Assembly: GCF_001870905.1 (NCBI RefSeq)
Contig: NZ_LNDC01000104.1
Location: forward strand, 5,157 to 37,156
Length of the DNA stretch: 32,000 bases
Source: Geitlerinema sp. PCC 9228
Lineage (GTDB): Bacteria; Cyanobacteriota; Cyanobacteriia; Cyanobacteriales; PCC-9228
Direction: 5' to 3'
The notes under the pieces are model-generated. The model did not search any database, was not told the DNA's origin, and saw only the letters and a list, made by a program, of their open reading frames with translations. A program made the position numbers and the translations under genes. Within the stretch, counting starts at the first letter, position 1, and each line of letters opens with the position of its first letter. Shown here one piece after another: positions 12,051-20,212 of the stretch.

Positions 12051-12114
12051 GCTTGTCGGCTTTTGGTGGACGCGCTGCGATCGCGGCAGTCAATTGTTGC
12101 TTGAGAGAGTCCCA

Positions 12115-12225
12115 TTTTCTAGAAAATATGCAATAAATAATCGGTGTGTTTTTCTAGAAACCCTTGACAGGGCGCCCCTACCAAAGAAACTAGAAAATCC
12201 CAGCAAATTATTATTTTTCAGAAAC
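12115..12225 (+). repeat. dispersed hairpin-repeat family, copy D (hairpin centre collapsed to AGGGCGCCCC)
   Basis: The left module TTTTCTAGAAAATATGCAATAAATAATCGG matches 12464-12496. GCGCCCCTACCA and TTTTTCAGAAA match copy A at 17627-17680. Confidence 0.6.
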
Positions 12226-12463
12226 AGCAAAAAGAAAAGATTTTTATTTGTCAAGAAAAAATAGCAAAACTTAATAGTTTTTCTAAAAAAAATATATACA
12301 GACAGTTTGTGATATGGTAAATGGGAGAACTGACTCTTTTTCAGAAATTGTCTGCATCCGAAAAATTGGGCAGCTATTCATTGCATGATTTCTGCAATAG
12401 TGCTGGAAACTTTAAAGATAGATGTTCTACTATAACAGTTTTATTAGACTGCAAAGACGCTGT

Positions 12464-12574
12464 TTTTCTATAAAATTATGCAATACATAATTGGATATGC
12501 AGGGAAATTTCGCGAAGCACCTCTAGCGGGAGAACTGGGAAAACTCCATACAATCGCTTTTTTCTCAGAAATGG
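12464..12574 (+). repeat. dispersed hairpin-repeat family, copy B (degenerate hairpin arms)
   Basis: TTTTCTATAAAATTATGCAATACATAATTGG ... TTTCGCGAAGC ... CCATACAATCGCTTTTTTCTCAGAAATGG is collinear with copy A (CCATACAATCGTTGTTTTTCAGAAATGG). Confidence 0.65.
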
Positions 12575-12881
12575 GGTTCGATAGTAGAAATTAGGAGGAA
12601 GTAGCAGAACATTGTAAGTTCGTTGGGCAAATGATTTTTTCATAGGGGCAATTCCAGAAAAAAATGTCCACAAGCAACCATTTCCTGGCAATGTCACCAG
12701 CACTGTAGCTGGGAAATTGTCTATTTTTACAAGGGGAATCTAGGAGCGACCAATCCTATTGATGCTTGTTGTTTTAGGGAAGAAACCAAACAGCATTGCT
12801 TGGGTAGGGAAGCTAGCGCATCTGACAATTTCTATTTTGGTTTCGCACTCATCAGAGGTTCTTTGGCGAGGTCTGCAACCC

Positions 12882-15997: not shown

Positions 15998-17146
15998 ATG
16001 AAAAACAAAACAATTACTACAGTGGAATTATTCGCTGGCATTGGGGGATTTCGTTTAGCATGCGATCGCTTGGGGATTCAAACAATTTGGGCAAACGACA
16101 TTAACGAACTAGCGGCTACCGTCTATCGCGATCGATTTCGGGAAACAGAATTTGTTCGTGGCGATATTCAATCTTTCAAACATCTGGTTCCCAACCACAA
16201 TTTGTTAACAGCAGGCTTTCCCTGCCAACCTTTCTCTAGTGCCGGTAAAAAACAAGGAATTACCGATCCCAAGGGAACGCTATTTGCTACGATTGTCGAA
16301 ATTCTACATGAAAAGCAACCCCAATTTTTTGTGTTAGAAAATGTCAAGAGGTTGCTTTCTATGGATGCGGGAAGACATTTTGGTACTATTTTACATGCTC
16401 TCACTGAATTGGGGTATTTTTTAGAGTGGCGATTGCTTAATGCTATGCATTTTGGACTGCCTCAGTATCGGGAAAGAACGATAATTGTGGGAACCAAGAA
16501 AAGTTTTACACCTTCTTGTTATCTCGCCACAGATGAAGATTTATGTACTGTTAGCGATCGCATTTTATCGGAAATAACACAATTTCAAAATTGGTGGCCA
16601 ATTACCAAACATGGTAAAAAATTCCCGACATGGGGACTAGCTTATCAAAAGAAATTTTATGGTATTACCTTCAAAGATTTTCAAAACCGTTTTCCAACCA
16701 AAAGACTAAAAGATGTTTTACAAAAAGATGTCGATGCGCGCTTCGATTTTACAGAGGATACCCAAAAACGCTTGCTTCAAAGTACCAAAGTCAACCGATT
16801 TTATAACTCTGTAGAAATTATTTACAACCAAAAAGGAGGTTCCCGTATGGGGTATACCGTTTTTGGGATTCATGGAGTAGCACCTACCTTAACATCAACA
16901 ACCAGCCGCCATTACGAACGATATTCCATTAATGGAAGATTTCGCCGACTTACAGATGTTGAATATGCTAGGATTCAAGGATTTCCAGACCATCACTGTC
17001 ACCTAGCACCATTGTACGACCGATACGCTTTGTACGGCAATGCTGTTCCTCCAGCAATGGTGTATTGGGTTATCGATCGCATCATCAATCAAAAAATCAC
17101 AAAAATAGAATCAAATTTTCCGGTACAAATGGCGTTGTTTGGATAA
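15998..17146 (+). CDS. DNA (cytosine-5)-methyltransferase
   Basis: Motif I ELFAGIGGF, motif IV GFPCQPFS (catalytic Cys), motif VI VLENVKRL, motif VIII LPQYRERTIIVG, a variable target-recognition region, and motif X YGNAVPPAMV. Confidence 0.92.
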   Translation: MKNKTITTVELFAGIGGFRLACDRLGIQTIWANDINELAATVYRDRFRETEFVRGDIQSFKHLVPNHNLLTAGFPCQPFSSAGKKQGITDPKGTLFATIVEILHEKQPQFFVLENVKRLLSMDAGRHFGTILHALTELGYFLEWRLLNAMHFGLPQYRERTIIVGTKKSFTPSCYLATDEDLCTVSDRILSEITQFQNWWPITKHGKKFPTWGLAYQKKFYGITFKDFQNRFPTKRLKDVLQKDVDARFDFTEDTQKRLLQSTKVNRFYNSVEIIYNQKGGSRMGYTVFGIHGVAPTLTSTTSRHYERYSINGRFRRLTDVEYARIQGFPDHHCHLAPLYDRYALYGNAVPPAMVYWVIDRIINQKITKIESNFPVQMALFG

Positions 17147-17601
17147 TAAAAAGTCAACAACTACGAGAGATTGTTTTTCAAAATATTGGTAAATTAGACA
17201 ATTTGAAACCTGTCCTCAAGCGATTGTATCCTCAAACGGGAATTCCTTACTGGTATAATTATTTGGAAGAAAATCATGCTTTGCCAAAAGTTGGGGTCAA
17301 AGCAGTTTCTAGTGTCATTGAAAGTCTAACAGTTGGCGTTCTTGAAACGTATACTCTCAAGGAGTTTTTGGGAAGCAGTCAACTTTCTATACAACCTGCT
17401 AAAGGCGTAGATATTCCCGAAATCGAATTAAGTATTAAATCACCTTCTGAAAACTATTGTACGAGCGAGCCTTTTTTCTCTGCTTACGAACGACTGCTAG
17501 GGAGTCAAAATGATGCGATTGTCTTCTTAACAAACTATCAAACCATGAAAAACGCTCTACCTTTATACCATTTCCTTAATAATCTGCAAGAGATAATATA
17601 G
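17065..17601 (+). CDS. hypothetical protein (178 aa); possible 5' half of an interrupted methyltransferase-partner gene
   Basis: ATG 17065 overlaps the MTase 3' end by 82 nt in another frame. There is no in-frame ATG/GTG after the MTase stop until TTG 17203. The ORF ends at TAG 17599 inside or at the edge of repeat copy A. No family recognised. Confidence 0.4.
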   Translation: MGYRSHHQSKNHKNRIKFSGTNGVVWIIKSQQLREIVFQNIGKLDNLKPVLKRLYPQTGIPYWYNYLEENHALPKVGVKAVSSVIESLTVGVLETYTLKEFLGSSQLSIQPAKGVDIPEIELSIKSPSENYCTSEPFFSAYERLLGSQNDAIVFLTNYQTMKNALPLYHFLNNLQEII

Positions 17602-17683
17602 GCATTTTTGTAGGGGCGCTTCGCGAAGCGCCCCTACCAGGGCAATTGGCAAATACCATACAATCGTTGTTTTTCAGAAATGG
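17571..17683 (+). repeat. dispersed hairpin-repeat family, copy A (MITE-like); perfect 26-nt palindrome at 17611-17636
   Basis: TAGGGGCGCTTCGCGAAGCGCCCCTA is a perfect palindrome. The right module CCATACAATCGTTGTTTTTCAGAAATGG matches copy B. The left boundary is uncertain: the weaker match of 17571-17600 to the B/D left module is arguable. Confidence 0.6.
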
Positions 17684-18222
17684 TATTACATATACAAATT
17701 GTCAATTATAAGTATTTGAAAGGTAGTCAAATAGCCGATCGCAAACTATGCAATTTGGCAAGGAAAGTGCGATCGCAGAAAACGACCCATAACGAAACAT
17801 CAATCAAGAAAGTAATTCGATTTTTAGCCTATGTTAACAAGCAAGACTGGCGTGCAAGCAAAATTCTTAAAGGACTTGAGATAAGCGATAATGAAAAGAA
17901 AGCGCAAAAAATCTTTAATAAGGAAACCCTAGAAAACGAGTTTCACAAGCAAAACCAAAGTCGGGAAGCCACAGGTAAAGAGTTAATTCCCAGCTATCAT
18001 CTAGACAGTCTCAAACAAATTACAGATATACATCCTATCGATGTAGGAATTTTTAGAGCAGCTGATGATTGGGTTATCGAAACCTACCAAGAAACAGCAC
18101 GTATTCCCAATGAGAATGAGTGGAAAAGATTTCTAGCCAGCCCCTTAGATGGTACCATTAGTATTAGTCCAGCTCTGCAATGGCGATATAATTTCCGAAA
18201 TGTGTTTCAAGTACCTTCGTAA
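17680..18222 (+). CDS. hypothetical protein (180 aa); possible 3' half of the interrupted partner gene
   Basis: Same reading frame as 17065-17601. Its ATG lies inside the repeat tail (CAGAAATGG). Lys/Glu/Asn-rich, AT-rich codons. No family recognised. Confidence 0.4.
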   Translation: MVLHIQIVNYKYLKGSQIADRKLCNLARKVRSQKTTHNETSIKKVIRFLAYVNKQDWRASKILKGLEISDNEKKAQKIFNKETLENEFHKQNQSREATGKELIPSYHLDSLKQITDIHPIDVGIFRAADDWVIETYQETARIPNENEWKRFLASPLDGTISISPALQWRYNFRNVFQVPS

Positions 18223-18462
18223 AATTTAAAATGCACTATCATTCTCTTTACTATTTTTTGAAATCAAGAAATTGCCCAATTGCTGGGCTACCTTGTCCGT
18301 AAAACTTGCTCTTGCCACTCTTGTTGTTCCAGGCTATCATAGAGCTCGATTCCACAAAAGTTTTATTCCTATAGAAGTCCCTCCTCTCTTCTCTAAATCA
18401 CCAACGGTAATTTTTGCTACCAAGTTTTCCCTAACTCGCTTTTAATTGGGAGTTGTACCATC

Positions 18463-19374
18463 ATGAAACTCGATTTGAACTATGTAACCACTCGCTGGCA
18501 CTATCTCCAACAGCATCCTGCATTTAAAAAATCTCCCGTACAAGCAACATTTCGCATTCTGTACTGGGGAGTTCATTGTGCTTTGGGCATTCCTGCCACC
18601 ATTCAACTACCGAGATGGAATTGTAAATTTTTCTTGCCTCCCAAATTTCGACGTGCAGGTTCTACAGGAATTTTCATTACCCGCGAAGATTACGAACCAG
18701 AACTTGCTTATCTGGAAAACGTACTGTCTCCTGGTGATGTTTTTGTGGATGGTGGGGCCAATTTTGGCATCTATACCGTTGTGGCTGCTAGTTTGGTTGG
18801 TTCCTCAGGGCGGGTTCTGTCATTTGAACCCGGTGAAGCATCATTTGCTATTTTACAGAAAAATATTGACATCAATCAGTTTGATAATGTTACTGCTTTT
18901 CAAGCGGGATTGTCCGATCGCGAAGGAACGGCTCGATTTTACCATGTTGAAAATGCGCCCAATAGCTATTCTTTGGGCTCAGAAGCTGTGCCAAGCGGGG
19001 ATTTTGAAGAAATTATTACGACCACCCTCAATCGCGTTTTGGAAACGGAAGGGATCGATCGCTTGGATGTGGTGAAACTGGATGTGGAAGGAGCGGAGGA
19101 AATGGTGTTGCGGGGATCGCAAGCGACGTTGGAACGCCATCGACCCATGATTTTGTTTGAAATTAGCAAAAGTGCCACCCGGCGTTTGGGATTGAGTCAA
19201 GATGGCGCGTGGCAGTTTCTCGAACAATTGGGCTATCGCTTTTTTGCGCTTGACGAAAATCAGCAGCCAGTGGTGTTGGCAACTCCCAAGTTGGGCAATC
19301 ATATTGCTATTCACAAGGATAATCTCGACCCGCAAATGGCTGGAGCGAGCGCGCACGACCGAGATGCTAGCTAG
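18463..19374 (+). CDS. FkbM-family SAM-dependent methyltransferase
   Basis: VFVDGGANFGIYT (SAM-binding G-loop), V(L)SFEP, and DVVKLDVEGAEEMVLRG are typical of the FkbM family. Confidence 0.8.
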   Translation: MKLDLNYVTTRWHYLQQHPAFKKSPVQATFRILYWGVHCALGIPATIQLPRWNCKFFLPPKFRRAGSTGIFITREDYEPELAYLENVLSPGDVFVDGGANFGIYTVVAASLVGSSGRVLSFEPGEASFAILQKNIDINQFDNVTAFQAGLSDREGTARFYHVENAPNSYSLGSEAVPSGDFEEIITTTLNRVLETEGIDRLDVVKLDVEGAEEMVLRGSQATLERHRPMILFEISKSATRRLGLSQDGAWQFLEQLGYRFFALDENQQPVVLATPKLGNHIAIHKDNLDPQMAGASAHDRDAS

Positions 19375-19828: not shown

Positions 19829-20212
19829 ATGAAATCAAAATATATGCCCGTAGATAAGATACAAAAGCAATCTAGCAATAAAAAGTTATCTCCAGACTAC
19901 TTAAATGCTAAAATAGGTCTTGATAGGGGACTAGAAAGCAACAGTTATTCCATGGCGAACAACCATCCAAACCGTACGAACAGCCAACTTAATCGAATTG
20001 TTGTACAAGTATCCGATGCCGATCTTAGACTGCTCACCATGCTTTCTAAAATTCACGGCCGCCCAGTACCCACCATTGCCGCTCAAATTCTGATGCGAGA
20101 ACTTGACAAAAGCCAAGAAACCATTAGAGGAAGAGTAGAAGCCTATGCCGCCAGTTGCAATATGACGGCTAAAGAGTTGGAAGATGCTTGGATGAATGAA
20201 AGTAGAAGCTAG
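19829..20212 (+). CDS. hypothetical protein with ribbon-helix-helix-like core
   Basis: RIVVQVSDADLRLLTMLSKIHGRPVPTIAAQILMRELDK fits a strand-helix-helix pattern. An alternative start at ATG 19952 (MANNHPN...) would give 86 aa. AT-rich upstream region. Confidence 0.45.
   Translation: MKSKYMPVDKIQKQSSNKKLSPDYLNAKIGLDRGLESNSYSMANNHPNRTNSQLNRIVVQVSDADLRLLTMLSKIHGRPVPTIAAQILMRELDKSQETIRGRVEAYAASCNMTAKELEDAWMNESRS

Follow-up and report, generated by a model that had tools for sequence, protein, structure and literature searches.

A predicted NspV-family restriction endonuclease pseudogene and its probably orphaned C5 methylase in Geitlerinema sp. PCC 9228

What is, or was, encoded directly downstream of the C5 cytosine DNA methyltransferase (methylase) gene in a 32,000-nt stretch of the cyanobacterium Geitlerinema sp. 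PCC 9228, referred to here as the window? The frame that follows the methylase gene spans 386 codons (17065-18222) and holds exactly two stop codons, TAG at 17599-17601 and TAG at 17611-17613, and its fragments are annotated by NCBI as two hypothetical proteins, WP_139240618.1 and WP_139240619.1. An earlier reading made from the letters alone (the sequence-only reading) described this frame and its two stops exactly, recognised no family in either half, and offered two explanations: either the repeat had disabled a novel endonuclease and so left the methylase an orphan, or two proteins together form the effector of a methylase-associated system not yet described. The analysis described here indicates that the locus is very probably a decayed type II restriction-modification (R-M) system of the NspV family, with a methylase that is probably an orphan; it is a known kind of system and not a new defence effector. 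The genes and the proposed catalytic residues are as follows:

15998-17146, plus strand: apparently intact gene for a C5 cytosine DNA methyltransferase of 382 aa (WP_071517092.1 of Geitlerinema sp. PCC 9228 by exact-sequence look-up)
17146-18222, plus strand: predicted NspV-family type II restriction endonuclease pseudogene with three lesions (joined halves match PF27258 proteins)
17410-17469, plus strand: putative catalytic core in GVDIPEIELSIKSPSENYCTSE, comprising D90 (17410-17412), K99 (17437-17439) and E109 (17467-17469), located from invariant columns

With the interruption removed and the halves joined, the partner matched 888 proteins in a phmmer search, with E values of 1e-89 to 1e-76 against those labelled PF27258, a label that reads "NspV" in gene tables. 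The best 120 of these 888 homologues are mostly 320-345 aa long, all carry PF27258, and align at 43-50% identity over 82-92% of the query, and all but one of them are single chains (119 of 120, 289-357 aa); the exception, P0001 (291 aa), is a Geitlerinema allele shortened by the gene caller. The joined halves are near-identical to two metagenome alleles in the same 90% cluster, P0001, which has no inserted element, and P0123, which is fully intact. Searched separately against the Pfam, NCBIfam and PADLOC libraries, the halves gave no significant match, being too short and the Pfam copy used being without PF27258; the statement that they belong to no recognisable family therefore stood for the halves and fell for the joined product. 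The intact homologues scored nothing against that Pfam copy either. The join once proposed for such a search (17598 to 17684) was also misplaced, as the correct one removes 17566-17688. A Vsr, HNH, GIY-YIG, PLD or novel effector identity was ruled out by the clear family match.

About 60 columns are invariant across the family alignment, and identity to NspV-family members is 45-50% across about 90% of the window endonuclease, a comparison that is with the family and not with R.NspV itself. A more remote relationship was found to NCBIfam NF052465, a type II restriction endonuclease family defined by a 209-aa equivalog, which is matched by the intact homologues at E values of 1e-9 to 4e-14 and weakly by the window halves, co-linear along the profile. 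The shared part covers the catalytic core (profile positions ~29-154), whereas the scores of 35-52 bits stay far short of the cut-off of 290 bits, and the proteins of the window family exceed the model by about 120 aa and possess an additional helical domain at the C-terminus. Judged by these profile matches, they are relatives of NF052465 and not members of it.

D90, K99 and E109 are invariant in 28 and again in 44 family members, which makes them candidates for a catalytic role. An AlphaFold model of the full-length protein has a mean predicted local distance difference test (pLDDT) score of 74, with a poorly modelled nuclease core, and a model of the N-terminal domain reaches a mean pLDDT of 82. 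The domain model places the invariant E60 and the nearly invariant E68 on a long helix, followed by a beta-hairpin with D90 and K99, a helix following E109 and two strands. This arrangement would suit a PD-(D/E)XK-like core whose second acidic residue lies elsewhere than at K-2. The NspV family has been placed under PD-(D/E)XK by sequence analysis (Orlowski and Bujnicki, 2008, Table 1A; PMC2441816), and the endonuclease would presumably have used this chemistry. A profile search of solved structures returned no relative.

Gene order argues in the same direction. The sequence-only reading had proposed a search for uninterrupted orthologues beside methylases, and in eight of the eight homologous loci examined (L122 and L123 from Coleofasciculus, L124, L125, L126, L129, L130 and L131) a PF00145 methylase gene lies directly upstream on the same strand, adjacent or overlapping by at most 11 nt. 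The window methylase is 54-60% identical to the methylases upstream of NspV-family genes at four other loci. The methylase-then-endonuclease layout, as read from these loci, is that of a classic type II R-M operon. With NspV-type systems the window shares this order with a C5 methylase, the ~60 invariant residues, a cyanobacterial host and avoidance of TTCGAA nearby, and it differs from them in that its endonuclease gene is a pseudogene with three lesions and the Geitlerinema clade stands apart from the family at conserved positions. Around the window cassette, a search for flanking repeats, promoters and terminators found nothing above chance. In L126 (5092-8978), the NspV-type pair adjoins the gene for an AAA_5 ATPase as well as several toxin-antitoxin genes of the PIN and HicA types, a neighbourhood that looks like a small defence island.

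The partner is not an uninterrupted gene; it carries an ATG-to-ATA change, a 39-nt deletion and a miniature inverted-repeat transposable element (MITE) with two in-frame TAG codons, which lie as follows:

17146-17148, plus strand: lost start codon, now ATA; the intact allele has ATG here, in a TAATG overlap with the methylase stop (window, L127 and L128 aligned at the DNA level)
17191/17192, plus strand: junction of the 39-nt in-frame deletion (alignment with the intact allele)
17563-17565, plus strand: target-site duplication TTA, left copy (bases 353-355 of L001 align here and at 17686-17688)
17566-17685, no strand assigned: MITE of 120 nt with terminal inverted repeats TACCATTTC and GAAATGGTA, carrying both TAG stops, missing from L001, L127 and L128
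17686-17688, plus strand: target-site duplication TTA, right copy (L001 alignment)

The start-codon change lies at window position 17148, so that the window reads IKSQQLRE where P0123 reads MKSQQLRE; the meaningful start of the gene is thus the former ATG at 17146 and not the TTG at 17065. Through the 39-nt deletion the N-terminal helix loses 13 residues, among them N28, L31 and G34, which the family conserves. The MITE sits between the codons for NALPL and HIQIV and adds 41 codons. Comparison of alleles gives these lesions an order. The metagenome contig L127 encodes the intact P0123 (330 aa), with its ATG, the 39 nt present, the TAATG overlap with the methylase stop and no MITE; L128 (40.5 kb, syntenic with the window) has ATA and the 39-nt deletion and no MITE; L001 is also free of the MITE; and the window allele has all three lesions. 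Start loss and deletion preceded the MITE, because the near-identical L128 has the first two without the third, and by this comparison the endonuclease gene decayed stepwise, with the MITE last. The partner is thus best read, from its alignments, as a pseudogene of the known NspV family and not as a functional member. The first of the two original explanations was right about the mechanism, in that the MITE brings both stops, and wrong about novelty, since PF27258 is a known family; the lost start codon and the deletion had been overlooked.

The prototype of these systems is R.NspV of Nostoc sp. PCC 7524, cutting at TT^CGAA, with AsuII and BstBI as isoschizomers. NspV has been reported to recognise TTCGAA (PMC2779907). 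This hexamer occurs 0 times in the window, for which a maximal-order Markov model predicts 6.8 copies and a dinucleotide model 11.8, and its depletion ranks first among the 64 six-base palindromes. In L122, L124 and L126 (27 kb combined) it is again absent, against 4.5 or 13.2 expected, and again ranks first. The depletion supports TTCGAA as the likely, though not the proven, site of this system.

Several observations weigh against a straightforward NspV-type enzyme. For the Geitlerinema alleles themselves, the precomputed PF27258 mark is no more than "faint", and the local Pfam library was without a PF27258 model, so that family membership rests on phmmer similarity to labelled members. Foldseek searches against the PDB returned helical-bundle noise only for the full-length model and nothing below an E value of 0.2 for the N-terminal domain, with ThaI and PvuII as weak matches. 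Depletion of TTCGAA is weak in the GC-rich loci L129 (1 copy against 5-6 expected), L130 (3 against 7) and L131 (6 against 8.5), and unrelated control loci are mildly depleted too (87 copies against 133-194 expected). Finally, of 103 strongly conserved columns, 13 are altered even in the intact Geitlerinema allele, where 27 other members have a median of 2 departures and a maximum of 7; its specificity or activity may therefore differ, to judge from these columns.

These departures bear on the possibility that the pair belongs to the NspV family and recognises a site other than TTCGAA. All Geitlerinema alleles are changed at 13-16 of the 103 conserved columns, with a cluster in the near-invariant loop LPNLDGKTIG, which has become LPKVGVKAVS (17284-17313), and this loop change could reflect early relaxed selection or altered properties. 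The 45-50% identity to other members, the absence of several other palindromes from the window and the weak depletion in three other carrier genomes would likewise suit a different site. However, TTCGAA is the most depleted palindrome in the window, the target-recognition region of the methylase shares 46-57% identity and long invariant stretches with the same four loci, which points to a shared methylation site, and an endonuclease could not switch sites unless its methylase did so too. A different site is therefore considered somewhat unlikely. On a second and weaker reading, the Geitlerinema enzyme may already have been attenuated or retargeted before it was lost.

The palindrome counts of the window also contain other extremes. 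TGATCA, CACGTG, GTCGAC, CTCGAG and AGTACT occur 0 times, and GGATCC and GTGCAC once each, while CGATCG is found 75 times and GCGATCGC, the HIP1 repeat of cyanobacteria, 49 times. The rare palindromes hint at further past or present restriction systems in this genome.

The methylase side of the decayed NspV-family pair shows no comparable damage. Its open reading frame (ORF) matches PF00145 at an E value of 1.8e-71 over profile positions 2-323 of 324 and TIGR00675 at 1.2e-73, and motifs I (FAGIGG), IV (PCQPFS), VI (ENV), VIII (QYRER) and X (GNAVPP) were all found, in agreement with the full motif set that had been recognised at 15998-17146 from the letters alone. The low GC content noted at the same time was borne out as well, with 39.6% in the methylase gene and 37.2% in its partner (about 39% for the cassette) against 48.9% in the remaining window. 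Since the methylase gene is untouched and its partner is dead, it is probably an orphan methylase by its sequence, and it may well still be active. The opposite case, in which the whole cassette is a relic and the methylase too is silent or inactive despite its open frame, could follow from the relaxed selection on a methylase that has lost its endonuclease, and of the five differences that separate the methylase genes of the window and L128, four alter an amino acid. Yet every allele compared retains the complete set of motifs and its full length, and the differences are too few to measure selection (2-9 per gene between alleles, which leaves dN/dS without power), so that a relic methylase appears quite unlikely.

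The contig L001 matches the window at 17211-17565 (100%) and at 17686-19247 (99.7%), and the two matches overlap by 3 nt, which marks an empty site; further alignment confirmed this empty site, and the flanks of L001, L127 and L128 are near-identical to the window. A Geitlerinema metagenome-assembled genome (MAG) contains three further copies, about 89% identical, at unrelated sites and with TTA, TCA and TAA duplications as their flanks. With inverted repeats of 9-10 nt, a target-site duplication, an empty site and dispersed copies, and with no coding capacity in its 120 nt, the insert has the properties of a MITE. Target-site duplications of 3 bp with the pattern TNA are typical of some IS5-family (IS1031/ISL2-like) elements. 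The element resembles IS5-derived MITEs in its short inverted repeats, its lack of coding capacity, its multiple copies and its TTA/TCA/TAA duplications, but differs in the GC-rich 28-nt palindrome inside it and in that no autonomous partner with matching ends was found; for an IS5-family origin, only the TNA duplication pattern fits. Besides the MITE itself, no paired ends of this kind 0.06-3 kb apart were present in any of the DNA examined, and two metagenome scans for the ends gave 0 matches. Two degenerate full-length relatives of the element lie elsewhere in the window (~12105-12228 and ~12460-12578), in AT-rich intergenic DNA upstream of a response-regulator/adenylate-cyclase gene, and the MITE family is therefore multi-copy and old in this genome.

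Precise excision could in principle make the endonuclease a phase-variable gene, reversibly switched off by the MITE: the insertion is exactly 123 nt and in frame, and MITE-free alleles coexist in nature. But the closest MITE-free allele, L128, already carries ATA and the 39-nt deletion, so that excision would still leave the gene abnormal; the DNA examined yielded no transposase partner with such ends, and empty sites are more simply explained as the ancestral state; reversible restriction is accordingly regarded as very improbable. That the halves form a working two-protein module, be it an endonuclease in two pieces or a novel pair of effectors tied to the methylase, is scarcely credible, and the second of the original explanations is refuted, for although each half has about 180 open codons, an in-frame ATG at 17680 lies in the MITE end and NCBI annotates two proteins, the homologues are single chains of ~325 aa (119 of the best 120 of 888), a near-identical intact allele of 330 aa exists, the split was made by a mobile insert that near-identical alleles do not have, the N-terminal half has no ATG and has lost the family start and 13 residues, and the C-terminal half lacks the invariant D/K/E core. 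The ATG at 17680, which opens the downstream ORF of 180 codons, is supplied by the right inverted repeat GAAATGGTA, and a potential truncated product (17680-18222) would therefore consist of the helical C-terminal domain only.

The centre of the MITE is conspicuous in its own right:

17610-17637, no strand assigned: perfect palindrome of 28 nt, GTAGGGGCGCTTCGCGAAGCGCCCCTAC, in the middle of the MITE (inverted-repeat search, hairpin folding)

Hairpin folding of the 126-nt element gave a z score of -4.25. A search found at least 123 copies of GTAGGGGCGCTTCGCGAAGCGCCCCTAC, palindrome-preserving variants included, in at least 120 loci, with hosts among Chloroflexota, Acidobacteriota, Actinomycetota, Rubrobacter, Thermotogae, Omnitrophota, Proteobacteria and Cyanobacteria, and with many copies in some MAGs. 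The GTA/TAC bases flanking the copies are 89-95% conserved and the sequence beyond them is random, so that the unit is sharply bounded by GTAG...CTAC; variants that preserve the palindrome, GTTCGCGAAC and ATTCGCGAAT, occur in the same loci. GTAG ends recall repetitive extragenic palindromic (REP) elements and their REP-associated tyrosine transposases (RAYT). A literature search for the string returned irrelevant primer matches only. It is conceivable, if doubtful, that GTAGGGGCGCTTCGCGAAGCGCCCCTAC is itself a mobile or selected unit across phyla that the MITE merely carries, in which case it would be an undescribed REP-like element whose hairpin is possibly read by a conserved enzyme.

One further observation concerns the neighbourhood of the cassette. 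An ORF of 127 aa without a family match is conserved downstream of the FkbM-type methyltransferase gene in all Geitlerinema contigs examined:

19829-20212 of the window (2902-3285 in L127, 6483-6866 in L128): ORF of 127 aa

Taken as a decayed NspV-family system, the locus suggests the following course of events. A low-GC cassette in the order methylase then endonuclease would have been acquired horizontally. In its intact state, the C5 methylase would protect the sites of the host, the NspV-family endonuclease would cut incoming DNA wherever that palindrome, most likely TTCGAA, is unmethylated, and the two genes would be translationally coupled by the TAATG stop/start overlap. In PCC 9228, the endonuclease gene is dead, through the ATG-to-ATA change, the 39-nt deletion and finally the insertion of the MITE at a TTA. 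A comparable fate is known from Microcystis aeruginosa NIES-843, where R-M loci are disrupted by insertion sequences (PMC2779907). In those disrupted loci and in orphan methylases left behind when an endonuclease decays, as in the window, a mobile element kills the restriction side and the methylase survives, whereas the agent in the window is a non-autonomous MITE of 120 nt, not a full insertion sequence, that arrived after two earlier lesions. The genome paper of PCC 9228 contains no discussion of R-M.

For the discovery of defence systems this locus offers little, being a dead gene of a known family, and its immediate consequence is a correction of the annotation, in which WP_139240618.1 and WP_139240619.1 should be treated as one NspV-family pseudogene. 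For the genetics of PCC 9228, incoming DNA should escape cutting by this system, and the DNA of the strain itself may resist BstBI and NspV-type enzymes. More broadly, the environment harbours intact, partly decayed and MITE-bearing alleles side by side, which shows step by step how an R-M system becomes an orphan methylase.

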